Shown here piece after piece: positions 893 through 57,936 of a stretch of DNA of 64,000 nucleotides. The position numbers and the translations under genes are program-made. The notes beneath the pieces are model-generated. The model saw nothing but the letters and a program-made list of their open reading frames with translations, was not told the DNA's origin and made no database searches. This stretch comes from an uncultured virus (IMG/VR IMGVR_UViG_3300044653_000122) (lineage: Duplodnaviria; Heunggongvirae; Uroviricota; Caudoviricetes), in IMG/VR virus record IMGVR_UViG_3300044653_000122, one strand, 5' to 3'. The stretch's first letter is position 1; each line of letters starts with the position of its first letter.

Positions 893-3373
893 TCAGTCAG
901 CCCCTTTCAGGTTGCAGACGGGGTACAAGCGGTGGGCGACCCGTGCGATGTTCTCAGACTCCAGAACCCCAAGAACGGAGTCCAAATCCTTGTAAACGTG
1001 CGCGCATTCGTCCAACGGAATGTGGCGGTGGTTGGAGACGATGCCCTCGATCTGGACGCCGTCGAACGTCCTCTTGACCGTGTTCATTTCCTCGTCGATG
1101 GCTTCCTGCCTGTGTTCCAGCTTCCGCTTGGCCTCCCCGCGGGCCATGATGCGCCCGCTCCCGTGGTTGACGGAGCACGCGGTCTTGTAGGCCCCCGCCT
1201 GACCGAAGAGGATGGCCGCACCCTCGTACATCGAGCCCGGGATGAGGCACGGATGGCCCGTCTTCTCCCACTGGGTACCAGCGAGGTCCGGGTGCCCGGC
1301 CGGGAACGCCCTCGTGGCGCCCTTCCTGTGGACGAAGCCCTTCTTGGTCGTCCCATCGGGTAGAACGAGAGTCTCCTCCTGGACGAGGTTGTGGCTGATC
1401 TCGTAGTAGACGTTGACATCCGCCTGGAAGATGTCCCGGGTCGCCGCCCGCACGCCGTCCACGATGATGTGACGGTTGGCCACGGCGAAGTTCGCCGCCG
1501 AGTTGTGGTGAGCCCAATACTCCTTGCCGAGGGGCTCGTCAGCACGGAGCCAGGAGTCGTCTCGGCGGTTCGAGGGCAGGCCACGGAGCTTAGCTCCGGC
1601 GTGGAAGAAGTAATCAGCCGTCTGCCAGCCATACCCACGAGAGCCACAGTGGACCATGATATAGACTTTGCCCGTGTCGCGGTCGACCTGCATCTCCACG
1701 AAATGATTGCCCCCGCCGACTGATCCAAGCTGGCCATTGACGCTCTTGTACGCCTTGTCGATCTTGGTGAGGTCGGTCGTCTCGGGGACGGGGATGTACT
1801 GGCGCTCACAGAGCTTCGCGTCGACCCCGAGGGCCTTGGCCCCATACCGAAGGATCTCGTCCGTCTTCGACTTGTTGAAAACGGGCATGAGTTCCGGTCG
1901 TGAGTGACCCTTCCCGGTCGCAATACGCTTCTCAACCTCGTTGACCCAGCGACGGCGCTCGTACTTGCTCTTCACGGAGCCTGCGTTGAGATCAGCTTCC
2001 ATGTAGAGGACCCCGCAGTTGTGGACAAATACACCTGCACTGAGTGCGAAGTTTGCGTACTTCTCGACAGTCAGGCAGTAGACATCAGCAGTGCGCTCGA
2101 TGGCGCGCACTGCAACAACCTTGTGGTTGTTGTGTCCAGTTACAATGTGGTGTGAGAGACCCTTCGCGCCAAAACACTCACGTCCACAGTGCGGGCAATT
2201 GAGGACCGTATGCTTCGCTCGAAGAGCTTCGAGTCGAAGCTGACGTTTGCTATTGGGCTTGACGCGGCCTCGATTTCTGATGCCGATGGCACGCGATGTC
2301 GCTCGACCCTTCTCACTCTGGTTGTATTTGACCAGACTGCCCTTGTTCCGCTGGCCGACTCCTGCACGATGATCCTTGTAGCCCCCTCGCGCGTTCACTT
2401 TTTTGTTCGTTTCTGCCATCGAGTTCCTACGGCGCTCGCGAAACGCAGGGTCGGCTTGAAGTCGGGTCATGTTTGCGGATCCCATGGCCGAGTACATCTC
2501 AGGATACAATTTGTGAGCCTTTGCGCCCCACGTCTCACCACGCATCAGCCGCTCTTTCGCCGTCCTTGAATGCAGGAGGAAGTGATCATGCTGATCCATC
2601 TCGACCAGGAAGCGGGGGTCGTCATTTCGCTTGTCCCGGTTCGGGTTGGCTGGGTTGAAGATGTCGTGGTGGACGACACGGGGCCAGATTGGCACGTATC
2701 CGTGAAATTCCCTGAATGAGACCCGGTACATTCTCTCGGTAGAGTTGTCTGCTGGATGCCGGACATTGCAATAACCGTCCTCATACGTTCTATAGAGGGG
2801 CATGAGGGAGGCGCCCTCCATAAGGGCACCAGCTTCACAGTAGGTGCCATCGCGCAACATGAATTCGTGATCTGGCGTAACGCAGATCGTCTTTCCGTTG
2901 TCCAGATCCACTTCCACGAGCTTGGCGTTAGTACGAATCTTGCGTGGACTGTGAGCTTTTCCGGCGGTCACTCGTCCGGCCGGCGTCATCGAATAGACGT
3001 AGAACTCACCCCCCTTGCCGTACTGCTTGACCAGCTCTGTAAAACTCATTTCACGCCCATCAACAAGGGGGACCTCGGTCTCCTCAGTGAAACAGGAGAT
3101 GTCGTAGCCGGACGCGCCCTGGATGATCGTGTCCTCGGTGACGATGACCGATCCGATGGGGACGCCGAAGCCGACATGTGCGTCCGGCATCAGATAGGCG
3201 CCGATCACGCCAGGAAACGAAGCGCCATCCACGATCTGCTTCCAAGCTTTCTCCTCAGAAGAAGCGTACAGGTCGTCTGAAAAGAAGGCGTGGACGTCCA
3301 CCTTCATCTCCCCCGTCTTCGGGAGGACGTAGTGGCCGTCGCTGATTCTCTGGACTGCGTACTTGAAGCTCAT
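893..3373 (-). CDS. rtcB: RtcB RNA 3'-phosphate/5'-OH ligase, intein-containing
   Basis: motifs MPDAHVGFG, GYDIS-C-G, GSVGGGNHFVE, VHCGSRG, HN, HRKGAT, PGSM, NHGSGR, DE..YKD. Confidence 0.95.
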   Translation of the reverse strand: MSFKYAVQRISDGHYVLPKTGEMKVDVHAFFSDDLYASSEEKAWKQIVDGASFPGVIGAYLMPDAHVGFGVPIGSVIVTEDTIIQGASGYDISCFTEETEVPLVDGREMSFTELVKQYGKGGEFYVYSMTPAGRVTAGKAHSPRKIRTNAKLVEVDLDNGKTICVTPDHEFMLRDGTYCEAGALMEGASLMPLYRTYEDGYCNVRHPADNSTERMYRVSFREFHGYVPIWPRVVHHDIFNPANPNRDKRNDDPRFLVEMDQHDHFLLHSRTAKERLMRGETWGAKAHKLYPEMYSAMGSANMTRLQADPAFRERRRNSMAETNKKVNARGGYKDHRAGVGQRNKGSLVKYNQSEKGRATSRAIGIRNRGRVKPNSKRQLRLEALRAKHTVLNCPHCGRECFGAKGLSHHIVTGHNNHKVVAVRAIERTADVYCLTVEKYANFALSAGVFVHNCGVLYMEADLNAGSVKSKYERRRWVNEVEKRIATGKGHSRPELMPVFNKSKTDEILRYGAKALGVDAKLCERQYIPVPETTDLTKIDKAYKSVNGQLGSVGGGNHFVEMQVDRDTGKVYIMVHCGSRGYGWQTADYFFHAGAKLRGLPSNRRDDSWLRADEPLGKEYWAHHNSAANFAVANRHIIVDGVRAATRDIFQADVNVYYEISHNLVQEETLVLPDGTTKKGFVHRKGATRAFPAGHPDLAGTQWEKTGHPCLIPGSMYEGAAILFGQAGAYKTACSVNHGSGRIMARGEAKRKLEHRQEAIDEEMNTVKRTFDGVQIEGIVSNHRHIPLDECAHVYKDLDSVLGVLESENIARVAHRLYPVCNLKGAD
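2018..3094 (-). mobile_element. intein (~359 aa) with internal endonuclease-like region
   Basis: begins CFTEET, block B VTPDHEF, ends VYCLTVEKYANFALSAGVFVHN followed by Cys(+1). Confidence 0.93.
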
Positions 3374-5664: not shown

Positions 5665-7338
5665 TTACCAGCTCTTGGACTTACGGGAAAGGCGATCTTT
5701 CCTCATGGCCTTGTGCTCGGCCTTGGCTTTGCTGTCCGTTCGTGGAGGGGGCGGGGGAGAGGGCGCGACACCAACCGGAGCAGGAGCGGGTTGGGCGCCC
5801 ATCAGGTTGAGGTTGACACCGTTGGAGGAGACGATCCCAAAAGTGTGGTCGAAGACCCTAGAGGAGTCAACGACACCGCCACCGACAGGCGCCACACCAC
5901 CCCACTGGAGGCTGCTGTCCCCGAGACTCGTGGTTGGCCAGACCTGGCCAACCACCGGGGCGACCGATGCCGCGTCCCCCGCGAAGGCGTTCGAGGTGCT
6001 GGTCTGGACCGAGTTCGACAGCGACACCCCGTACGAAGCGAGGGCCGCCGAAGCGCTCGTATCATAGGAGGCCCCGCCCATGGCGCGGGTGCCCCCCGTC
6101 GCCATGCTGCGGAGGTACCCTCCGTTGTCCTGGTACGCCTGGGCGCTGCACAGACGGATGCCCACCTGGCCGGCGAGATAAGCTGCTGCGGACTGGCCCC
6201 CAGCTCCGAAACGGCGTGCGGCCGTGGTCATGTGCTTGACGGCTCCCTGGTAGTCCCCGCGCTTGGCCAGCTCTTCGGCTTCGAGTTGTGCCTGAACGAC
6301 CTGAGCGAGGCTGATGATCTTGGCCAAATCGGTGGGCACCTCCTTGGACTCCTCGCCGGCCTTGACGAACTGGACCTTGGCCTTTGCCTCGTCTCCCTTG
6401 CGCTCCTTCTTGGAATTCGCATCGAGGATATCCCAGCCCGCCTTCACGTTGAAGACGTTGACCGCACGAGGCCCAACGTTGCCCTTCTGAGTCTTCAGCT
6501 TCACGGCGAGAACGATGTGGCGAGCCTCCTCGGCCAGAATGTCAGGGATCTTGATGCGGACCCCCTGTCCAACCTTCTCCTCTTCGGAGTCCACGTCGGA
6601 CACGACATCCGTGATCTCATGCTCCCCGCACGCCGAGATGTTGAGGAGCAGGTTCGTCGCGTACGTGCTGAGAAGACCGCCCAACTCCTTGCCGAACGCC
6701 GTGAGGGCGTCGTCCGGGTTCTGGACGAACGCGTAGTTGCCAGAGCCCTTCTTCGCCAGCTCAGCGAGGAGGTTCTGGTCCGCGTCGGCACCGTATCCGA
6801 AGGCGCTCGCCGTGCACGATCCCATGTTCGCTTCGAGGAGCTTCACGAGCCCAGCCAGGTCGCGAGCCGGACCCATGTTCGCCTGACCATCGGTGAAGAG
6901 AACGACGCGAACGATCACATCCCCGGGAAGGTCGAGCTTGTTCCCCAGTTCCAAACCCTTGAGAAGGGCGTCAGCGATGTTGGTGGCGTTCCCGCACGAG
7001 AGGCTCGCGACAGCGCGCTTGAGGGACGCCTTGTTCTCAGCCGTCACCTTCATCGGGCGTGCGACGACTTCTGCCGACCCGCTGAATTGGACAAGACCGC
7101 AGTAGTCGGTGGGCGCGAGATGGTCGAGGAGCTTGTCGACCGAGCGTTTGGCGTAGTTGATCTTCTGCCCACCCGACTCGTACATCGACGGCGACACATC
7201 GATGAGAGGGATGATGCAGAGCTTCGAGCGCGTGGCCTCCGCCTCGATGGGGGGTGCGGTCAGAGTGACGACCAGGTGCGCATCCGTGTCCTGGTCGTGA
7301 CGGATTTTTTCGAACGAGAGAGCGGCTTCTACCTTCAT
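5665..7338 (-). CDS. vWA domain protein
   Basis: DVSPSM, ATNI, LFTDGQAN, AFGYG MIDAS-type motifs. Confidence 0.85.
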   Translation of the reverse strand: MKVEAALSFEKIRHDQDTDAHLVVTLTAPPIEAEATRSKLCIIPLIDVSPSMYESGGQKINYAKRSVDKLLDHLAPTDYCGLVQFSGSAEVVARPMKVTAENKASLKRAVASLSCGNATNIADALLKGLELGNKLDLPGDVIVRVVLFTDGQANMGPARDLAGLVKLLEANMGSCTASAFGYGADADQNLLAELAKKGSGNYAFVQNPDDALTAFGKELGGLLSTYATNLLLNISACGEHEITDVVSDVDSEEEKVGQGVRIKIPDILAEEARHIVLAVKLKTQKGNVGPRAVNVFNVKAGWDILDANSKKERKGDEAKAKVQFVKAGEESKEVPTDLAKIISLAQVVQAQLEAEELAKRGDYQGAVKHMTTAARRFGAGGQSAAAYLAGQVGIRLCSAQAYQDNGGYLRSMATGGTRAMGGASYDTSASAALASYGVSLSNSVQTSTSNAFAGDAASVAPVVGQVWPTTSLGDSSLQWGGVAPVGGGVVDSSRVFDHTFGIVSSNGVNLNLMGAQPAPAPVGVAPSPPPPPRTDSKAKAEHKAMRKDRLSRKSKSW

Positions 7339-14686: not shown

Positions 14687-14786
14687 TCCTGGGGATGGGG
14701 ATCGAACCCATATGCCTCCCGGCCACAGAGGCTCAGCGCGGGAGCACTGAGCCCGTGTGTGTGTCTTCCTGTTCCACCACCCCAGG
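14687..14786 (-). ncRNA. tRNA-like RNA with elongated anticodon arm
   Basis: acceptor CCTGGGG/CCCCAGG, Leu-like D arm, T arm, inserted GGCTCAG/CTGAGCC helix. Confidence 0.7.
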
Positions 14787-14787
14787 G

Positions 14788-14862
14788 TGTTCGCGGGGGG
14801 ATTCGAACCCCCATTCGACCGATTTTAAGGTGGTTGCCTTTTCCAATTTAGGCTACGCGAAC
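14788..14862 (-). tRNA. tRNA-Leu(TAA), short variable loop, weak anticodon stem
   Basis: loop CTTAAAA; two stem mismatches. Confidence 0.7.
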
Positions 14863-14876
14863 ATTGTCACCTTTTG

Positions 14877-15568: not shown

Positions 15569-15674
15569 GTGATCCTCATCTTCATCTGGGGGTTGGTGCG
15601 AAGGCGAGGGGTGGGCCGTACAGCCCTCGCAGCCAGACTCCTGCATTGGTCGGCGCCTGAGCCTGTCTTCGCGG

Positions 15675-16014
15675 TGGAGATGCCGGGAATCGAACCCGGG
15701 TCCTAAGAGCATTCCGAACACCCTCATCCACATGCTTGGACGCCGTATCCCCGGCGACTGAGTTCGCGGATTCGGCCGCGACCTAGCCCTCCTGTTCCTC
15801 TCGTCGTAGAGCCCGGTGACCCAGCTCTACGACCAGCCCTGGTGGTTGACGACTCCTTCGCCGCTAGGACGACCCAGCGAGGAATCGGCTTTCAGGCCGC
15901 AGCCTGGAAAGCGTTGTCGTTGTCGTTGGCGACTATGACATACTCGGTTGAACGGGCCGAGCGCCGTTGCATGCGGGCAGTTCTTGTTTCTCCCAGTCGA
16001 AACCTGTCATCCCC
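15675..16014 (-). ncRNA. ssrA: tmRNA, tag peptide ANDNDNAFQAAA* (15892-15930)
   Basis: 5' GGGGATGAC..TTCGAC, 3' GGTTCGATTCCCGGCATCTCCA, G3:U70, resume context ATAGTC-GCC. Confidence 0.95.
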
Positions 16015-30436: not shown

Positions 30437-31603
30437 TCACTCGACGCTGACGATGACGCCCGCGCCGACCGTCTTGCTACCCTCGCGGACTGCGAACCGC
30501 ATGCCGGGCTCCAAGCCGATGGGCACCATCAACTCCAACGAGACCTGTGCGTGGTCCCCAGGGTTGATCATCTTGTTCTCGCCGAAGCCCGTCACCGTGC
30601 CGGTGACATCGGTCGTGCCGAAGAAGAACTGGGGCTTGTATCCCGGGAAGATTGGCGTGTGCCGACCACCCTCCTCCTTCGGAATCACGAACAGCTCGGC
30701 CAGGGCCTTGGCGTGAGGTTGCACGGAGCCAGGGGCGATGAGCACCTGACCACGAACCACCTCGTCCCGGGCGACGCCGCGGAGGAGCAGACCGCAGTTC
30801 TCACCCGCACGTGCCTCAGGCTGGTCCTTGTGGAACATCTGGATGCTCGTGCACACGACCTGACGGGGTTTGGAGTCCGCCTCCACGAGCCCGACGATCT
30901 CGACGGTGGACCCCGCCTTGAGGACCCCACGCTCGATACGCCCAGTGACGACGGTGCCACGACCAGGGATCGTGTGCACGCCCTCGATGGGCATCATGAA
31001 CGGCGCGTCGTAGTCCCGCTTCGGGTCGGGGAAGTGCCGGTCCATCGTGGCGACCAGCTCTGCGATGCAGGCCCCATCCTCTGCGGGGTTCTTGAGCGCC
31101 TTGAGCGCCGAACCCTTGACCACCGGGCAGTCCTTGTAACCGTGCAGCTCCAGGCGCTCGACCGTCTCCATGACGACCAGCTCCAACAGCTCGGGATCGG
31201 AGATGTCCACCTTGTTGATGAACACGACGATCCTCTGAACCCCGACCTGGCGAGCGAGCAGGATGTGTTCCTTCGTCTGGTACTGGGGTCCCTGGCTACC
31301 GTCGACCAAAAGCACGGCTCCGTCCATCTGGGCGGCCCCCGTGATCATGTTCTTGATGTAGTCAGCGTGCCCAGGGCAATCGATGTGGGCGTAGTGCCTC
31401 GTGGCACTCTCGTACTCGACGTGGGACACGTTGATGGTCACCGTCTTCGACTCGTCGCGGACCGTGCCACCCTTGGCGATGTCCGCATAGGACTTGACCT
31501 TCGCGAGCTTCGAGTACGCTTGTACGGCCAGGAGGGCTGCCGTCAGCGTGGTCTTGCCGTGGTCGACGTGCCCGATCGTGCCCACATTTACGTGCGTTTT
31601 CAC
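30437..31603 (-). CDS. tuf: elongation factor Tu
   Basis: [48 protein letters not shown]. Confidence 0.97.
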
Positions 31604-32078: not shown

Positions 32079-32733
32079 CTATCCACGGTCTTCTCCTTTC
32101 TTTGGAGTGTTATGGCTAAGGGCGAGCACCACACGGTCGACCCCAATGGCCCACCCGATGCCCTCTTTGTAGCGGCCCCCACCAGCAATTTGCTTTTGGG
32201 CGCCGAGCGTTTCAACTTCGGCCTCGAACCCGTCCTCGACGTAGTACGTGAGGCCACGCTTGACCGCAGGGTTGAACTTGTAGGGAACCTGGAGACGATC
32301 GAGGCAAGCTCGGAGCGAGCCCTCAGCCTCCTCGGTGTCCCCCTTGCCCTGACCCCCTAGGATCTCGACGCCGAACTGCGTGAACTCCCGGTACCGGCCC
32401 GCCTGTGGGCGCTCGTAGCGGTAGCAGCGCTGGCAGTAGAAGATTTGGTAGGGCCGCTTGACGCTCCGGCTCCACTCGTCGTTCCAGAGGCGTTGGATGA
32501 GTGCGGTTGCCTCAGGGATGAAGACACACCGGACGATCACCCTTGTCCCGGAAGGCCCACATCTGGTTGACGATCTCAGGACCCGCCTTCTGTACGAAGG
32601 TCTCCTGATCCCACAGGGACGGGAGGATGACCTCCTCGAACCCACGGTCCGTGAGCGTCTCCCGAATCGTTGACGTGACCTTGGTGAAGAGCTTCGCTTC
32701 GGTGCCAGTGATGACGCGGGTGCCACGGATCAT
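32079..32733 (-). CDS. minimal HisRS-like catalytic domain, split by a +1 frameshift near 32515
   Basis: RGT..GFEEV..P; PEAT; YRYERPQAGRYREFTQFGVE; RGLTYY; GGGRY; GWAIGVDR. Confidence 0.85.
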
Positions 32734-33849: not shown

Positions 33850-33872
33850 GTAAGGTGCTCAACCCTGTAAAC

Positions 33873-34006
33873 TGGAGGCGGGTCTTGGAGTCGAACCAAG
33901 CAAGCTTGTAAGCACGCGGAGTTTGCGGGGCCCCCGTGGAGGCCCGAGTGATGCGCGCTGTCGATTTCTCTTATGAGGAGAAGCGGGACCCACGTCCCTA
34001 CCCGCC
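33873..34006 (-). ncRNA. module RNA 2: tRNA shell (CAT loop, CCA) with module in variable arm
   Basis: GGCGGGT/ACCCGCC-T-CCA; TTCTC-CTCATAA-GAGAA. Confidence 0.8.
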
Positions 34007-34015
34007 ATGATATTT

Positions 34016-34151
34016 GAAGACACCCGAGGTGCAACCCTGGTCACGCCTTACGGCGAGCAGTGGGGATCGAACCCACATCCTTCGGTTTCACGTACCAACG
34101 CTCATCCAGTTGAGCTATGCTTGTTAGGGCTACGAGGTGCGGGGTGCCTTC
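34016..34151 (-). ncRNA. module RNA 3: module encloses D/anticodon(GTG)/T arms
   Basis: GAAGGCACCCCGC...CTCGGGTGTCTTC terminal helix. Confidence 0.8.
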
Positions 34152-34153
34152 AG

Positions 34154-34282
34154 AGCCGGATCCAGGAGTCGAACCTGGCGAGCTTGTTAGCGCGCTTTGG
34201 GGCGGGGTCCCCGTGGAGACCCGAGTAGTGCACGCTGTGGTTTTACCTGGGAAAGGTAGCGGGACCCACGTCCCTATCCGGC
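34154..34282 (-). ncRNA. module RNA 4: tRNA shell (TCC-like loop) with module in variable arm
   Basis: GCCGGAT/ATCCGGC acceptor, T arm. Confidence 0.8.
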
Positions 34283-34323
34283 ATGATCTCGAACTTGTCC
34301 TACTTCGAAGGCGAGGACTTGCC

Positions 34324-34438
34324 TGGGGGCGGACTCTGGAGTCGAACCAGAGGCTTGTGTGCACGTTGGGGTGCGGGGCCCCCGTAGAGGCCCGAGGAAA
34401 ACGCGCAGTGAAAGTGGGACCCACGTCCCAAGTCCGCC
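34324..34438 (-). ncRNA. module RNA 5: tRNA shell with CCA, module replaces the anticodon arm
   Basis: GGCGGAC/GTCCGCC-C-CCA. Confidence 0.8.
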
Positions 34439-34447
34439 GAAATGTTA

Positions 34448-34573
34448 GGCGACGCCCGAGTTGCAACCCTGGTGTGTGGTAGCAGCAGGAATCGAACCTG
34501 CCCTGTCTCGTTATCAGCGAGATGCTCAACCAGTGAGCTTTGCTTGTGAGGGTAGCGGGGGCGGGGCGCCGCC
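34448..34573 (-). ncRNA. module RNA 6: module encloses D/anticodon(GAT)/T arms
   Basis: GGCGGCGCCCCGC...CTCGGGCGTCGCC. Confidence 0.8.
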
Positions 34574-34575
34574 AG

Positions 34576-34708
34576 CGCCGGATGAAGGAGTCGAACCTTC
34601 CTAGCTTGTAAGCACGCGTGGTTGCGGGGTCCCCTAAGAGACCCGAGTGGTGCGCGCTGGGAATGGCTTCCTTAACAGGGAAGTGACCTCCCCGAGGTCT
34701 AATCCGGC
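34576..34708 (-). ncRNA. module RNA 7: tRNA shell (GTT loop) with module in variable arm
   Basis: GCCGGAT/ATCCGGC; CTTCC-CTGTTAA-GGAAG. Confidence 0.8.
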
Positions 34709-34717
34709 ATGATGTTA

Positions 34718-34844
34718 GGAGACGCCCGAGATGCAACCCTGTTGTGTGTGCAGCGGGTGTCGAAACCCGCAACCCACGGCTTGAGAGGCCGTTGCTCTAC
34801 CATTGAGCTATGCTTGTGAGGGCTGCGAGGGGCGGGGCGCCTCC
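34718..34844 (-). ncRNA. module RNA 8: module encloses D/anticodon(CTC)/T arms
   Basis: GGAGGCGCCCCGC...CTCGGGCGTCTCC. Confidence 0.8.
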
Positions 34845-34846
34845 AG

Positions 34847-34980
34847 GGCCGACTGTGGGAATCGAACCCACTATGCTTGTATGCGCGTTGTGGGGCGGGG
34901 TCCCCGTGGAGACCCGAGATGTACGCGCAGGTGAATTGCTTCCTGTTCAGGGAAGTGCCCAACCGGAGGGCTTAGTCGGC
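34847..34980 (-). ncRNA. module RNA 9: tRNA shell (GAA loop) with module in variable arm
   Basis: GCCGACT/AGTCGGC; CTTCC-CTGAACA-GGAAG. Confidence 0.8.
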
Positions 34981-35017
34981 GAAACGTACGAGACTGGAAC
35001 TACTGAGAGAAGATTTC

Positions 35018-35163
35018 GGTCACGCCCGAGATTGACGCCTGTGTGCTGTATGTTCACTTTCGATGTGAATGCCTTACCGTTAGGCTACATCTCCCGAAGG
35101 AGGTGATGGGACTCGAACCCACATTTTGTGCTTGTAAGGCGTCGTGCTTGGCGGGGCGCGACC
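35018..35163 (-). ncRNA. module RNA 10: module encloses a permuted tRNA (T arm, TTCG-capped acceptor, D arm, anticodon arm)
   Basis: GGTCGCGCCCCGC...CTCGGGCGTGACC. Confidence 0.8.
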
Positions 35164-35166
35164 TAG

Positions 35167-35311
35167 CTGGGGGTCTAGGATTCGAACCTAGAAGAGCTTG
35201 TTTGAACCGCTTTTTGGCGGGGTCCCCGTGGAGACCCGAGATGCGATCCAGGGTTTTGCTTTCGCAACGTGGTTTGGAATCACGCTGGCCTGCCATCGGC
35301 CAATACCCCCA
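35167..35311 (-). ncRNA. module RNA 11: tRNA shell (CCA loop) with module in variable arm
   Basis: TGGGGGT/ACCCCCA acceptor, T arm. Confidence 0.8.
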
Positions 35312-35390: not shown

Positions 35391-35972
35391 TCAGATTCGA
35401 ATCGTACCCCCGGGGCTGACCTGGTAGGACAGGCGCGCCCCCTTGCCGACGAACTCCTTGACGGAGTGTGCAACGTAAGCGGAAACGACCGCGAGGAAGG
35501 GGAGGTGCTCCCCGTTCTCACACGTCGGAGCGCCCTGGGCGTCCTCTTCGTCGATGACGAACGACTCGTCCCACGCTACGCGGCCGAAGTTGCCGTTGGC
35601 ATCCACAGCCGCATGAAGGCAGGGGATCTTGGCTTTGCGGACGAAGGTCTGGATGACACGCCGAGAGGCAGCGTTGTCCAGACAATCGACCACAAGGTCC
35701 GCTCCCCCGAGGAGCTGTTCAGCGTTGTCCGAAACGAGCTTGTTCGAGTTCGTCTGGAGCTTGACGCCGAAGAGGAGATCCATCGCTCCGGCGAGAGCCA
35801 GCACCTTCGGCTTACCTACGCCCGGCTTGCCGTGGAACTGGCTCTGGATGTTCTTCGCCTCCACACGGTCGAAGTCGATGACCTTGAGGGCCGCCTTGAC
35901 GTTGCGGAGGAGCATGACGGCCTGGGACCCGAGGGCACCCACGCCGACGAATACGATGGTCTTCATCTTCAT
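35391..35972 (-). CDS. ThiF/E1-like adenylyltransferase
   Basis: GVGALGS, IDFDRVEAKNIQSQ, GKPKV, VVDCLDN; candidate Cys in PTCE. Confidence 0.9.
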   Translation of the reverse strand: MKMKTIVFVGVGALGSQAVMLLRNVKAALKVIDFDRVEAKNIQSQFHGKPGVGKPKVLALAGAMDLLFGVKLQTNSNKLVSDNAEQLLGGADLVVDCLDNAASRRVIQTFVRKAKIPCLHAAVDANGNFGRVAWDESFVIDEEDAQGAPTCENGEHLPFLAVVSAYVAHSVKEFVGKGARLSYQVSPGGTIRI

Positions 35973-36033
35973 CTCCCTCGGGACATCACCAAGCCCCTCT
36001 GGTTACTACACCAGAGGGGCCAGCGAAATCCTC

Positions 36034-36306
36034 TCAACCATAGGCAGTCTTGGGTCTCACGAAAATGCGGTTGTGGTCCGCCTGCCCCGGCGCCGGATTG
36101 GCCGGCGCGTCGAAGCGGTCGACCATGAAGTTCGTGAGGTCGACGTTGGGATCCGCCACCACACCGGGAACGGATCCCGTGCGGATGGCCTCGGCCGCCC
36201 ACCCCTTGATGTCACCGTCCCCCGCCTGGTAGTGCACGGGGTCCGGCAGCTCGAAGTTCTGCCCGTTGTAGGTGATGTTCACCCGGGCCTCGTGAGGCTG
36301 GATCAT
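36034..36306 (-). CDS. putative ubiquitin-like protein
   Basis: 90 aa, beta-grasp-like pattern, ends RIFVRPKTAYG; lies between JAB and E1. Confidence 0.65.
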   Translation of the reverse strand: MIQPHEARVNITYNGQNFELPDPVHYQAGDGDIKGWAAEAIRTGSVPGVVADPNVDLTNFMVDRFDAPANPAPGQADHNRIFVRPKTAYG

Positions 36307-36710
36307 GGCTGCATCTCCTTCTGATCTGTTACCGGCTGCGAGTGCCGGCGAAGTTCCTCGACCCAAGGCGGCTCGTCGTAGACCTTCGAGACGCTGTAGT
36401 CGTACCGATTGGGACCGACCCACCGGACCACCACAAGACGGTCCATGCTGGCGATCCACCACTTGTATCGTCGCCCGAGCCCGCTCTCGCAGGCCTCGTA
36501 CGTCGTGATGTCTTCCCAAGAAGGGCCCGGCCAACCGAGGCCAGGGTGGCTGTGCGCCTGCCCCGACATGGTGAGCCGGTTCTCCCAGTAGACATCCCAG
36601 AGCTTGGGGCTGTCAGGGAGCGCGACGACATTTCGGTTGGTTGGCAGGTGCCAGTAAACAACCTGCGTCTCATCGGACCCGATGACAACCCCTGCTTCGC
36701 GCATGTTCAT
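36303..36710 (-). CDS. JAB/JAMM metallo-isopeptidase
   Basis: N-terminal E (REAG), HSHP....PSWED. Confidence 0.85.
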   Translation of the reverse strand: MNMREAGVVIGSDETQVVYWHLPTNRNVVALPDSPKLWDVYWENRLTMSGQAHSHPGLGWPGPSWEDITTYEACESGLGRRYKWWIASMDRLVVVRWVGPNRYDYSVSKVYDEPPWVEELRRHSQPVTDQKEMQP

Positions 36711-36719
36711 GTCGACCCC

Positions 36720-37697
36720 CTAATCCTCGAAGTCATCATGGTCCTCGAAGTCATCGTCTCCCGCGTGACGGTTGACGACGAGCACGCGATCCCGATCGGC
36801 TGCGAGGATGACGGCCGGCAGAGATTCCAGGGTGAACTTGGTGTCACCCACCTCTCCAGTCGCGTGATTGACGAGACAGATGCCTGCGTTGATGATCCGA
36901 AGAGTCGTCGAATCGCAGGTGGAAACGTACTGGCGACGTGCGAGACGGTAGGTCACGACCATCTCGTTGCGTTGGTACCCCTTCTTGTGGTCGAGGTACT
37001 CGGCCCCGCCGAGCGCCAGAGCAGCGCGAGCCGCTTGGGCGAAGTCGAGTTGGGCCATGGCACGACGACCCTCCCCCGTGCCAAGCTGCTGAGCGATCTG
37101 TTGTCTTCGCTCTTCAGCCAGCCGCTTGGCCTCTTCCTCCTGACGCCTGCGCTCCTCTACGGCACGCCGACGCTCGGTCTCCGTCCGCATGAACGACTCC
37201 ATGCGGAAGGCTGCATCGAGAGCAGGGAGGACGTTGGGAATGCCTCCAACGTCAGCCTTGCGGTCGAAATAGGCCTGGAGAACATCCGTTTCCGGACCCA
37301 AAGGAAAGTCCTGCGTCTTGTAGACGAGGGGACCATCCTCGAAGGGGCGACCCGCCACGACCCGCACAAAGCGATCGAGGCTGGGGTCGAGAAGAGCAAC
37401 CGGCTCGGAGTAGCCGATGATCTTTGCAGGGTCGGGATCCACGTGCACAGCGTCGGGAACGATGCGGTCCCCCACGAGGTACCCACGGATCTCATGACCG
37501 AGAATATCGGTTTGGGGGTCCGAAGCCTTGTCCAGGAACGCCTTGCGCCCGTTGAGCTTGAAGTTGTACCAGCCGACCTCCTTCGGAAGTCGACCGTCAA
37601 TGTTCCAGGTACGAGCACCCGACCGGAGATCCCTCCCTCCCAGCCAGGGCGAGACCAAGGCCTCATTGCCCGTCTGTAGAAGGTCTCTCCACGACAT
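36720..37697 (-). CDS. hypothetical protein with possible C-terminal E2-like domain
   Basis: coiled coil then beta-rich domain with AGICL..D.KFTLESL; operon context. Confidence 0.6.
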   Translation of the reverse strand: MSWRDLLQTGNEALVSPWLGGRDLRSGARTWNIDGRLPKEVGWYNFKLNGRKAFLDKASDPQTDILGHEIRGYLVGDRIVPDAVHVDPDPAKIIGYSEPVALLDPSLDRFVRVVAGRPFEDGPLVYKTQDFPLGPETDVLQAYFDRKADVGGIPNVLPALDAAFRMESFMRTETERRRAVEERRRQEEEAKRLAEERRQQIAQQLGTGEGRRAMAQLDFAQAARAALALGGAEYLDHKKGYQRNEMVVTYRLARRQYVSTCDSTTLRIINAGICLVNHATGEVGDTKFTLESLPAVILAADRDRVLVVNRHAGDDDFEDHDDFED

Positions 37698-37757
37698 GCT
37701 CATCTCCATCTGGTGGAGGAAAAACCCCACCACCTTCACAGATGGTGGGGTTCCCTG

Positions 37758-39683
37758 TTACGCCGCCTTCGACGACACGGGCACGGAAGCCCAGGCCGGC
37801 TTCTTGAGCAGGTCCGTCTTGAGGATCGTGTCCACGAGGGTCACGCGCGGAACTGCCACCTGCCCGGTGGCCTTGCCGACCGGAGTCGCCGCGATCAGGG
37901 CGCGGATCGTACGCGGGATGGCGTACGGGTCCGCTGCACCTCCGGTTGCGACCTGACCGAAGATACGCTGATCGACCGAGAAGCACGGGATGCCGAGGAC
38001 AGCAGCCGCGTTGGGGACGCACTTGTAGTTCTCGCCCTGGAGTTCGAGGAACCCGAACGCCACGGGGTTGAGCTTCGAGTCGCGGATGGCCGCCACGAGA
38101 CCGTGAGTCTCGCGCTGACCACCGTCACCAACCCAGACCATGATGCAGTCCTCGTCCGGTGCCGGCTTACGCCGGTCCGTGAGCGCCGAACGAACACCCG
38201 CGCTGTGGTCGGTCCCACCCCCTGCGGCGATACCGCGGAAGGCGTTCTCGACGCCAGCCTTGCTCGCGTGCTTGATCTCAACGACACGGCCCGCCGTGTT
38301 GAAGACCACCGTCACCGTCTTGTCCAGGGGGAAGCCCTGGAGGAACTGCGCGATGTAGGTCATCGACGCCTGGATCGACGCGCTCATCGAGCCCGAGATG
38401 TCGATGATGAAGTACACGAAAAGGCCCTTGATGACCTCCGCCACCTGCTTCTGGAGCGCGGTGTCGGCAGCCTGCTGGAGCTTATCCTTGCCCTCCTTCG
38501 ACTTCATGCGGAGCGCGATGTTGGCCGCCCGCATGTTCTCGGCTTCCCGAAGAGCCTTGTCGAGGCGCTCACGGTAGGTCTGGACCTGGAGCAGACCCAG
38601 CTCTTCGATCGTCGGAGCCAGGTTGATCATCTCCGCGTTGGAGATGCACCCCGACTCGATCGCGGCACCCATGATCGCCCTCGTGAGGCCGACACCCTTC
38701 GGCAACATGGCCGAGAGGCGGTTCCACTTCGGGCGGTCCTTGACGACACGTTCGCAGACCTGCTCCTCGGTCAGGCCGTCCCACGTCTCCGCGGCAGCGA
38801 CCTTCTCGTTGAGAGCGAGCTTGCGACGGCCGTCGCTGGACTGCACCTGCTTCCACCGAAGCGTCTGGTAGAACTTCGGCGTGAGCGGGACATACCGAGC
38901 CTGGCAGGCGAGGGAGATGACACTCCAACGCGCACCCGACTTGATGAGCCCTTCGAGCAGCTTGGGGTTACGCTCGCGGTAGGCGAGCCAGCGGTTCACC
39001 GCCTTGGGCCAGCGACCCAGCTCCGGGCGCCGAGCGGACTTGCCAAAGCCCAGCTCGTGGTTGATCTTGGCGATCTGCGGCAGCGAGAGCAGCTCGCGAG
39101 CGCGGACCAGGAGCTTGGCGTTGAAGCCGCCCTTCTCCTTGTCGAGAAGGAACATGGCCTCGCCGACCTCACGGAAGTCGTCGTCGAAGAACGCAAGCTT
39201 GCCGTTCTCCACGACCTCCTGCCCGCAGCGGCTCTGCACGAGCATGAACGCAGCGAGCACGACCTTGAGGTCCCGGTGCTCCTGCCCGAATGCGAACGAA
39301 GCCCAACGGGCCGCGAACTCGTTGTCCAGCTTCCAGACCTCGGCGACCTGCTGGTAGAGCCAGACCGCGACCTCCGTGAAGAAGCCGGGCTTGCGATACT
39401 CGCCGACGCGAGTCGTACCGTTCATGATCGTCTTCTTGTCCGCCGCGAACTCGCCGGCCTTGACCCAGGCCGTCTTCTTGCCGACCTTGCTTCCGAGGTA
39501 AAGGACACGCTTACGCGCGTCTCCCTCGCCCTCGTACTTGGCCTTCGCGAAGGCCCACTTGACGCCGACCACCGAGGTCGGGTCCGGCGTGACCATGCCG
39601 GGGCGGTTGTGAACGCAGTGGTCCACGTAAGGCGTGAGCGACGCGATGATGCGCTCCGCCGGTCCAAGATTCTCGTTCGCCAT
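37758..39683 (-). CDS. Ro60/TROVE-like helical domain + vWA protein
   Basis: long helical region then IIDISGSM, GGTD, VGDG; start placed at MANENL after GGTGTA motif. Confidence 0.65.
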   Translation of the reverse strand: MANENLGPAERIIASLTPYVDHCVHNRPGMVTPDPTSVVGVKWAFAKAKYEGEGDARKRVLYLGSKVGKKTAWVKAGEFAADKKTIMNGTTRVGEYRKPGFFTEVAVWLYQQVAEVWKLDNEFAARWASFAFGQEHRDLKVVLAAFMLVQSRCGQEVVENGKLAFFDDDFREVGEAMFLLDKEKGGFNAKLLVRARELLSLPQIAKINHELGFGKSARRPELGRWPKAVNRWLAYRERNPKLLEGLIKSGARWSVISLACQARYVPLTPKFYQTLRWKQVQSSDGRRKLALNEKVAAAETWDGLTEEQVCERVVKDRPKWNRLSAMLPKGVGLTRAIMGAAIESGCISNAEMINLAPTIEELGLLQVQTYRERLDKALREAENMRAANIALRMKSKEGKDKLQQAADTALQKQVAEVIKGLFVYFIIDISGSMSASIQASMTYIAQFLQGFPLDKTVTVVFNTAGRVVEIKHASKAGVENAFRGIAAGGGTDHSAGVRSALTDRRKPAPDEDCIMVWVGDGGQRETHGLVAAIRDSKLNPVAFGFLELQGENYKCVPNAAAVLGIPCFSVDQRIFGQVATGGAADPYAIPRTIRALIAATPVGKATGQVAVPRVTLVDTILKTDLLKKPAWASVPVSSKAA

Positions 39684-39801
39684 GTTCTGATCCGATCTCG
39701 GCGACACACCTTCGCCGTTTCCTAGTAATACACCGCCGTGGTGCGGGATCCCCGAAGAGATCCGAGATGGCGATGCAGAGGTCCCGAGGAAGCCGGGAAC
39801 C

Positions 39802-57378: not shown

Positions 57379-57936
57379 ATGTCTCTACTCCAAGTGCGCC
57401 ACTTTCCGGACCCGATCCTTAAGAAGGTCTGCGAGCCCGTGCATGAGATCGACGACGGCCTGCGCATGTTCCTCGTGGACATGGCCGAGACGATGATCGC
57501 CCAGAAGGGGGTAGGTCTCGCGGCCCCTCAAGTTGGCCGCTCGCAGCGGTTCTTCGTGGTCGACATCTGGTGGCCCTCCGACCAGGACGACAAGACCCTG
57601 ATTTTCATCAATCCGAAGATCACAGCGTACGAAGGCTCACAGCGTGGGCTGGAGGGGTGTCTTTCGATCCCCGGCGTCTTCGAGCACGTCACCCGGGCAC
57701 AGAAGATTCGTGTGGTGGCGCAGGATATCAACAGCCAGGTCTTCGAGCTGGACGCAGAGGGATTTCTTGCGGTCGCCATTCAACACGAGTTCGACCACCT
57801 GAACGGCGTGCTGACGTTTGACCGTCTCGGCCCCCTCGCGAGAAAGATGGCCACGAAGAAGTACGATCAGGCCAGCGAGGCACGTGCCCGGGACCGTAAG
57901 GGTGGTCCTCAGCTCTCGGTTGCGAAGAGACCCTAG
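57379..57936 (+). CDS. def: peptide deformylase
   Basis: GVGLAAPQVG, EGCLSIP, QHEFDHLNG. Confidence 0.96.
   Translation: MSLLQVRHFPDPILKKVCEPVHEIDDGLRMFLVDMAETMIAQKGVGLAAPQVGRSQRFFVVDIWWPSDQDDKTLIFINPKITAYEGSQRGLEGCLSIPGVFEHVTRAQKIRVVAQDINSQVFELDAEGFLAVAIQHEFDHLNGVLTFDRLGPLARKMATKKYDQASEARARDRKGGPQLSVAKRP

Follow-up and report, generated by a model that had tools for sequence, protein, structure and literature searches.

This report concerns a five-gene cassette and an adjoining array of structured RNAs on a 64,000-nucleotide (nt) stretch of DNA from an uncultured virus of the class Caudoviricetes (IMG/VR record IMGVR_UViG_3300044653_000122); the whole stretch is called the window below. The cassette consists of five open reading frames (ORFs) on the minus strand, in the order RoL (remotely Ro60-like), p339, JAB, Ubl (ubiquitin-like) and E1, after which the RNA array begins (Table 1). 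The ORFs lie where, and in the order in which, they were placed by an earlier reading of the sequence made without database searches (the original prediction), which had taken them for a Ro60-like protein co-encoded with an E2-like, JAB, Ubl and E1 conjugation set. Packing of the genes is tight: JAB and Ubl overlap by 4 nt, and the remaining intergenic gaps are 9–62 nt.

Table 1. Genes and RNA elements of the window, numbered from its first letter
Feature	Position	Strand	Basis or remark
RoL, 641 amino acids (aa), remote Ro60/TROVE-like	37758..39683	minus	AlphaFold2 (AF2), Foldseek, hhalign, Pfam vWA
p339, 339 aa, invariant-Cys protein	36720..37739	minus	alignment n=49, AF2, fold searches
JAMM/JAB metallopeptidase, 135 aa, predicted Ubl C-terminal processor	36303..36710	minus	Prok-JAB, zinc-site residues
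Ubl-type protein, 90 aa, ends ...KTAYG (Gly90)	36034..36306	minus	conserved C-terminus
ThiF/MoeB-type E1, 193 aa, minimal	35391..35972	minus	Pfam ThiF, MoeB match, invariant residues
R1 array, six elements, structured	33868..35311	minus	covariance model, acceptor pairing
R1 elements	33868-33960, 34146-34237, 34319-34408, 34568-34659, 34839-34930, 35159-35251	minus	
Cloverleaf units around five of the six R1	34006-33868, 34282-34146, 34708-34568, 34980-34839, 35311-35159	minus	
Three tRNA-like elements between R1 units	34052-34124, 34481-34544, 34750-34813	minus	Rfam tRNA partial, ARAGORN
R1-like hairpin without T-arm, between tRNA-Pro and the RoL start codon	39705..39778	minus	
RtcB RNA ligase split by an intein	893-3373	minus	RtcB E 1e-81; Intein_splicing E 6e-16
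Second vWA protein, 557 aa, N-terminal vWA, near RtcB	5665-7338	minus	vWA E 7e-15
L7/L12	13483-13869		phage-carried translation gene
tRNA with four-base anticodon (aaaa)	14785-14863	minus	ARAGORN
tmRNA	15673-16014		phage-carried
EF-Tu	30437-31603		phage-carried translation gene
Truncated HisRS-like protein	32079-32726		phage-carried translation gene
Peptide deformylase	57379-57936		phage-carried translation gene

The E1 matched Pfam ThiF with an E-value of 6e-23 (81.6 bits against a cut-off of 28.1), and its closest solved relative was MoeB (1jw9, E 4e-11). In an alignment of 45 sequences, the glycines of the GxGxxG motif (G10, G12 and G15), D33, K56, D96 and D99 were invariant, as were two cysteines, C97 and C151; the latter belongs to a PTCE motif whose T150 is also invariant, and it stands at the crossover-loop position. 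Distant E1 relatives with 28–35% identity (L109-L119) looked like generic ThiF/MoeB loci. The JAB protein scored just below the Pfam cut-off for Prok-JAB (E 4.6e-5, 23.7 bits against 25), and the residues of its JAMM zinc site (HSHP...S..D), namely E5, H53, H55, S64 and D67, were invariant in 49 sequences. Judged by sequence, the E1 and JAMM assignments of the original prediction are solid.

The 90-aa product encoded between these two genes showed no Pfam match, no PDB profile match and no ESM Atlas model. Its C-terminus is conserved as RPKT(P/A)(F/Y)G, in which R84, K86 and G90 are invariant (n=45), and its homologues carry from 0 to more than 50 residues beyond the conserved Gly. At loci without JAB, all 10 distinct Ubls stopped exactly at this Gly, whereas at loci with JAB 55 of 71 Ubls were tailed (42 by 1–5 residues and 13 by longer extensions), 13 were untailed and 3 were unparsed. 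The confinement of the tails to JAB-bearing loci is strong, if indirect, evidence that the JAMM matures the Ubl and that the free Gly carboxylate is the functional end. The conserved terminal Gly and the covariation of the tails with JAMM presence also make the predicted role of the 90-aa protein, a Ubl-type substrate, a well supported one. In four homologues (L023, L024, L027 and L033) the conserved Gly is followed by a Cys-rich, CxxC-like tail, which looks as if a small zinc ribbon had been fused there for the JAMM to remove. In a near-identical DNA contig from another sequencing run, 108 nt at window positions 35973-36082 were swapped for 97 other letters; the swapped stretch spans the Ubl C-terminal codons and the Ubl-E1 spacer, and this junction is a variable spot.

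The true start of p339 is likely Met15 (approximately position 37697), where its homologues begin. The AF2 model, with a predicted local distance difference test score (pLDDT) of 90, suggests tandem OB-like β-barrels (residues ~25-148), a long coiled-coil helix (172-243) and a small C-terminal Cys domain, the last predicted to comprise a small helix, a four-strand β-meander, a loop and a helix and to carry Cys288. In the motif AGICL, G286, C288 and L289 were invariant (n=49), as was P308 downstream, and Cys273 was near-invariant. The family has approximately 1093 members, all unnamed, on the same kinds of contig as RoL. From the AGICL motif and its context p339 had been read as an E2, an assignment that neither profile nor fold searches supported. 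Pfam assigned p339 to no family, and the 26 families matched at E ≤ 10 by its 49 members included no E2; PADLOC, NCBIfam and PHROG likewise gave no E2 match. Prok-E2_B proteins, sought for a profile comparison with p339, gave 0 matches in 401 genomes of one phylum and were not recovered from the controls either. Foldseek returned nothing at E ≤ 1e-3, and UBC chains were absent from the 50 best fold matches of 48,161. E2 enzymes have an HPN motif upstream of the catalytic Cys; in the 49 aligned sequences there was no conserved His-Pro-Asn upstream of C288, only D/N at −3 being common. The order of structural elements and the G-x-C-L...P-A motif recall E2 enzymes, which is a resemblance and not evidence; an E2 identity of p339 is unsupported but possible.

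The main rival explanation takes these proteins for a sulfur-carrier pathway, in which a Ubl of the ThiS/MoaD/TtuB/Urm1 type, matured by a JAMM that has no other task, would be adenylated by the E1, would become a thiocarboxylate by way of a persulfide on E1 Cys151 or p339 Cys288 and would serve to thiolate phage tRNAs or tRNA-like RNAs presented by RoL and p339. We consider this possible, though on the unlikely side. The best matches of the E1 are ThiF/MoeB/UbaA adenylyltransferases, and it is minimal and MoeB-like, with no E1-specific domains; the sulfur-carrier systems (ThiS-ThiF, MoaD-MoeB, TtuB-TtuC, Urm1-Uba4 and CysO-MoeZ-Mec+) thus provide its closest sequence relatives as well as a small Gly-ended carrier comparable to the Ubl. 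Triads of E1, JAMM and Ubl occur in sulfur metabolism (CysO/Mec+ and QbsE/QbsD), some Ubl sulfur-carrier systems possess a JAMM trimming enzyme, and tRNAs are thiolated by TtuB/TtuC and Urm1/Uba4. That the JAMM is dispensable where the Ubl is made mature fits pure processing, the operon is embedded in tRNA arrays, and the failure to find an E2 fold for p339 points the same way. However, sulfur carriers end in Gly-Gly and this Ubl ends in F/Y-G, p339 displayed no nucleotide-binding signature in the Pfam scan, and the constant partners RoL and p339 are without counterpart in the known carrier systems. In addition, a scan of the 56 window ORFs at E ≤ 1e-3 detected RtcB but no PP-loop thiolase or ATPase (TtuA/Ncs6/MnmA), rhodanese, ThiG, MoaE or cysteine desulfurase, and the conserved operon also contains no PP-loop ATPase, rhodanese or cysteine desulfurase; a sulfur-accepting or thiolating enzyme is therefore missing from both.

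RoL comprises an N-terminal β-rich region (residues ~29-97), a helical region of approximately 315 residues (~103-418) and a C-terminal vWA domain, whose metal ion-dependent adhesion site (MIDAS) is complete and invariant across the alignment (D428, S430, S432, T491 and D520). Pfam matched VWA_2 only (E 7e-6). When the AF2 model of RoL (pLDDT 74) was compared with the PDB by Foldseek, ranks 1-10 were all Ro60/TROVE structures, led by Ro60 of Thermus phage phiLo (9KOP), with E-values from 2.6e-7 to 1.4e-5 over 510-576 columns, whereas the best protein with a vWA only reached 3.2e-5. A fold search of BFVD showed the same pattern, and its matches included annotated phage Ro-like and TROVE proteins. 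Profile comparison by hhalign with enriched alignments matched RoL to TROVE with a probability of 95.2% (E 2.6e-8) over 314 co-linear columns, RoL 224-554 corresponding to Bxz1 Ro 148-521, that is, approximately 200 helical residues (224-420) plus the vWA; with shallow alignments the match was weak (25.7%). Other PDB sequence searches gave only vWA or chance matches, and the ESM Atlas gave unnamed viral clusters or nothing. On sequence and model together, RoL is Ro60-like in architecture and probably a remote homologue, not a canonical TROVE member.

The distribution of the cassette was surveyed in IMG/VR by an alignment-based RoL scan, which yielded 65 loci, and the partner genes were located by tblastn; a single-sequence p339 scan of viral contigs had returned zero relatives. 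The gene order recurred in 61 of the 65 loci. p339 was found in 61, JAB in 60, Ubl in 57 and E1 in 53; these partners always follow RoL downstream, sharing its strand and keeping to one order. Missing partner genes fall at locus ends, and the 4 loci without p339 have less than 1 kb of downstream flank. Order and strand are kept even though the cassette proteins are only 40–60% identical across loci and insertions of up to several kb separate the genes in some of them. GTDB contigs, scanned with the E1 alignment, contributed 33 close loci (L076-L108) with the compact form of the cassette; most of these contigs are binned to Myxococcota (Kofleriaceae, Polyangiaceae, Sandaracinaceae and others). 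In every IMG/VR and GTDB locus examined, the Ubl gene adjoined E1. One GTDB copy (L103; G006:C58:128548-130368) resides in a 799-kb contig of a cultured myxobacterium; in the surrounding 80 kb the GC content is uniformly ~70%, the single tRNA is a tRNA-Arg right after E1, and the neighbours are kinases, two-component proteins, an RND pump and YcaO/P450/halogenase genes. The cassette that had been presented as a phage system is thus present in huge phages, where it is located in tRNA islands, but it also sits in an ordinary chromosomal context. Its occurrence in both settings suggests a unit that is mobile and functions as a whole. Chance is far from sufficient to explain the arrangement, which we read as one functional operon.

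Several further observations were made on the homologues. The only GenBank phage record with a RoL homologue (48.7% identity) is KX853510.1 (Virus Rctr197k; L066). There the RoL gene, immediately preceded by ~30 consecutive tRNAs, bears no annotation beyond misc_feature, and a ThiF-like gene lies ~7 kb downstream. In-frame stops were seen in the ORFs of RoL homologues at L009, L015, L016, L020, L025, L029, L032 and L039 and of p339 homologues at L049-L051 and L056, and there is one TGA in G007 (G007:C4:190823-192688); these could represent read-through of adjacent genes, frameshifts or stop-codon recoding in some phages. The Myxococcota-binned copies hint at the host range of the phages, and the cultured myxobacterium offers an experimental system.

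Searches of the cassette with PADLOC, PHROGs and NCBIfam added only E1-type matches. PADLOC E1-E2 (Cap2-like) models matched the E1 part only (profile positions 276-409 of 489; best E 3.8e-14), and NCBIfam 6A-MBL cap2_3 matched E1 with an E-value of 2.5e-10. Along with the presence of the cassette in a bacterial chromosome, these matches favour the explanation that phages captured a conjugation (defence) system of the Bil/Bub/CBASS type, with RoL as a vWA sensor or adaptor that has no RNA role. Bil operons (BilA Ubl, BilB E2, BilC JAB and BilD E1), Bub operons (types I and II) and type II CBASS Cap2/Cap3 share with the cassette a Gly-ended Ubl, a JAMM that can mature a pre-Ubl and an adenylating E1 (PMC11601596), and the vWA-MoxR 'FtsH ternary' conflict systems couple a vWA protein to a full Ubl-conjugation set of JAB, E1, E2 and Ubl genes (Kaur et al. 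2020, PMC7159879). A capture of this kind is nevertheless improbable in our estimate. Only the adenylation domain was matched: the cassette E1, a MoeB-like core of 193 aa, has neither inactive-adenylation nor mobile Cys domains, no E2 is recognizable, and the cassette adds an OB/coiled-coil/Cys protein and a Ro-like protein. PADLOC found nothing for RoL, p339 or Ubl, and JAB only at E 0.056. Unlike the 'FtsH ternary' systems, the cassette has no MoxR/FtsH ATPase, RING E3, EAD1 or caspase effector gene, its vWA is preceded by a Ro-like helical domain, and its locus has tRNA-like RNAs. Finally, the cassette is largely phage-borne and lies among tRNA genes, not in defence islands, and the capture explanation leaves both this embedding and the R1 RNAs unexplained.

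The RNA elements downstream of E1, termed R1, were modelled by a covariance model built from the six window repeats, and matches were counted at E ≤ 1e-4. Each R1 consists of a helix P1 enclosing a hairpin P2, the conserved TACAAGC and a canonical T-arm. The model recovered 78 further full-length matches in 54 related loci. In the resulting alignment, which had itself been fitted to the model, 93.5% of cells were paired and 18 of 19 pairs showed compensatory changes, compared with at most 51% in slid controls. In 72 of 84 R1, the 7 nt after the T-arm paired 7/7 with a 7-mer located 40–75 nt upstream of P1, while shifted controls gave 3–7 of 84; therefore, each R1 is the enlarged variable region of a cloverleaf that has its own acceptor stem. 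Of the six window elements, five belong to such a cloverleaf, whose acceptor stem has 7 bp and which also includes an anticodon-like arm, and the insertion in the variable region is conserved, ~50 nt long and made up of two helices. Most R1 cloverleaves possess an anticodon-like arm, in which the triplet varies. The window copies lack the usual D-loop, their D-arm being a tight hairpin, and they are not close paralogues of the normal tRNAs that share their triplet. ARAGORN called a tRNA over only 1 of the 78 matches; behind 19 of them comes a normal tRNA, at a distance of 21–27 nt in 18 cases and of 48 nt in one. Rfam yielded partial tRNA matches on the array and at most 31 bits for YrlA, against a gathering score of 69. 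These results show that R1 is a real structured RNA family.

Between R1 units of the window lie three tRNA-like elements with normal D, anticodon and T arms and an acceptor stem of only 3–4 bp, beyond which, as read by eye from the sequence, an internal loop and then an outer helix of ~8 bp appear to follow. Their Rfam tRNA matches are partial (model positions 4-67 and 5-66), and one of them was called tRNA-His by ARAGORN. The hairpin in the RoL leader contains a motif match at 39743-39766 and scored 29 bits (E 1.3e-4) with the R1 model. A scan of the 65 loci for the P2 hairpin motif with up to 4 mismatches found none, whereas the covariance model did find the element.

None of the 78 matches was located inside the operon: 59 lay downstream of E1 and 12 upstream of RoL, in both cases at a distance of at most 3 kb, and 7 lay elsewhere. 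At least one adjoining R1 was present in 34 of the 42 viral loci with enough flank, and 13 of the 33 GTDB loci had a match. In five whole phage genomes, 11 of 25 matches fell in the ~18-kb module loci, and every genome had at least one adjoining copy. R1 clusters far from the cassette were observed at G004:C1:97936-100461, G001:C1:90558-92083 and G005:C1:262252-264867. The linkage of R1 to the operon is thus frequent and specific, not exclusive, and the original claim of an RNA array of tRNA-mimic character beside the cassette is borne out by the adjoining copies, the covariation and the acceptor pairing.

These distributions bear on the explanation that two independent neighbours are involved, namely a Ro-like protein with Y-RNA-like RNAs acting in RNA quality control and an unconnected Ubl/E1/JAMM/p339 set whose targets would be unrelated proteins of phage or host, their adjacency being no more than the gene order of a lineage. 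The canonical phage and bacterial Ro60 loci, as described in PMC4201824 and PMC12135203, carry Y-like RNAs without Ubl genes; in many loci the five genes are interrupted by insertions that reach several kb; R1 clusters also occur far from the operon; and the family of close RoL relatives is narrow, a search of 1.84 billion proteins having returned 208 representatives at E ≤ 1e-3. Against this stands the retention of order and strand by five genes whose products are so divergent, and their joint travel into a bacterial chromosome. RoL and p339, moreover, share similar family sizes and the same contig types, and R1 flanks the operon on either side and has never been found within it. We therefore judge independence of the two systems to be unlikely.

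The reading that we favour, and put forward tentatively, is that the operon links a Ro-like ribonucleoprotein (RNP) to Ubl activation, with Cys288 of p339 as the likely acceptor after Cys151 of E1. Three parts of the following scheme are inferred: the thioester relay, the RNA binding ascribed to RoL and p339, and what the target is. The JAMM would trim the Ubl precursor to expose Gly90, whose carboxylate the ThiF-type E1 would adenylate before loading the Ubl onto its invariant Cys151. The Ubl would then be handed to the invariant Cys288 of p339, which would be a functional analogue of an E2 whether or not it has a UBC fold. The OB-like barrels of p339, together with the helical domain and the MIDAS vWA of RoL, may hold the tRNA-like R1 RNAs or damaged tRNAs, so that the Ubl would be attached to protein in or at the RoL-p339 RNP. 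The original prediction went further and proposed an E3-like role for the tRNA-mimic RNAs, which would select the targets for Ubl tagging. In one version of such an RNA-linked system, the R1 RNAs, held by a Ro-like ring and the OB-fold protein, would choose the acceptors of the Ubl (RNA-guided tagging). In a bolder version the Ubl-adenylate would be transferred to tRNA-like 3′ ends, a chemistry like that of aminoacyl-tRNA synthetases, and the RNAs would themselves be the tag carriers. We hold these two versions to be highly improbable.

A number of observations weigh against a link between a Ro-like RNP and Ubl conjugation. On the side of RoL, the Foldseek alignments to Ro60 had TM scores of only 0.23-0.33 at a root-mean-square deviation of 14-16 Å, and the helical part alone aligned by hhalign in the same register with an E-value of 0.16, which is not significant. 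Pfam TROVE (PF05731) matched none of 32 RoL family members at E ≤ 10, none of 17 distant RoL relatives taken from the 208 representatives and none of the five whole huge-phage genomes, whereas 3 of 3 phages known to carry Ro matched it, 2 of them over the cut-off. The Ro60 assignment probably holds at the remote level given by the Foldseek top ten, BFVD and hhalign, but not at the level of the Pfam family. On the side of conjugation, given that no E2 fold or family was found for p339, the invariant Cys is all that the step distinguishing conjugation from sulfur transfer rests on. With respect to the RNAs, an adjoining R1 (E ≤ 1e-4) was not found in 8 of the 42 viral loci and 20 of the 33 GTDB loci, and 14 of the 25 genome-wide matches lie elsewhere, including a 7-copy cluster ~225 kb away in one genome. 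The myxobacterial genome gave no R1 match among the 150 of 4984 candidates that were scored, which is no evidence of absence. As regards the gene set, L097 and L101 in GTDB carry E1 without RoL in the upstream flank, Ubl and JAB are swapped in L083, and most loci come from one phage lineage, so that the synteny is partly due to shared descent.

The window has a GC content of ~60% and contains 54 tRNA genes and one tmRNA, almost all on the minus strand, in addition to several translation genes (Table 1). Viral contigs bearing RoL relatives reach 619 kb. These features identify the window as the tRNA/translation island of a huge phage. The tRNA with the four-base anticodon is possibly a frameshift-suppressor-like or a degenerate tRNA. 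Two contigs from soil RNA libraries matched the window exactly, at 34727-34925 (RNA array) and 37071-37306 (p339); these libraries may contain DNA, and the matches are no demonstration of transcription. The remaining sequencing-run rows, of small share, were short tRNA-like pieces of other organisms. Bacterial Ro60/Y RNA usually has RtcB as its partner in the operon, and here RtcB is encoded ~32 kb downstream of the cassette within the same tRNA island. This setting suggests that the cassette serves to survey or repair tRNAs or to counter host defences directed at tRNA.

Among jumbo phages, a small subset encodes TROVE proteins (PMC7824862), and the Ro60 of phiLo and its associated Y-like RNAs have been documented (PMC12135203). 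Carriers of Ro60 (Rsr)/Y RNA include Thermus phage phiLo, mycobacteriophages, CcrColossus, Bacillus phage G and the bacterial rsr-yrlBA-rtcBA operon. The cassette resembles them in the succession of a helical domain and a MIDAS vWA in RoL, whose best structural matches are Ro60, in the tRNA-like RNA genes that adjoin it and in the presence of RtcB in the same island. It differs from them in that RoL has no Pfam TROVE match and possesses an extra N-terminal β-rich region. Furthermore, R1 elements are whole cloverleaves with an insertion in the variable region, whereas YrlA is a permuted T/acceptor/D module on a Ro-binding stem (PMC4201824). Full-text literature searches found no Ro locus with Ubl, E1 or JAMM genes and no description of a Ro60/TROVE-Ubl coupling. 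The genetic coupling of the two thus appears to be undescribed, as the original prediction had supposed.

Both Ro60-Y RNA particles and ubiquitin-like conjugation are of ancient origin and have been studied extensively, and an operon that couples them would give a tractable system in which to determine the purpose of the MIDAS and vWA of Ro60. To the prokaryotic and viral Ubl systems on record it would add one with a minimal E1 and possibly a non-UBC Cys carrier, and it would bring to light a new class of tRNA-shaped RNAs whose variable arm holds a conserved insertion. Since huge phages carry the operon in their tRNA/RtcB islands and a culturable myxobacterium has it as well, it may also bear on how phages protect translation from the tRNA-directed defences of their hosts.

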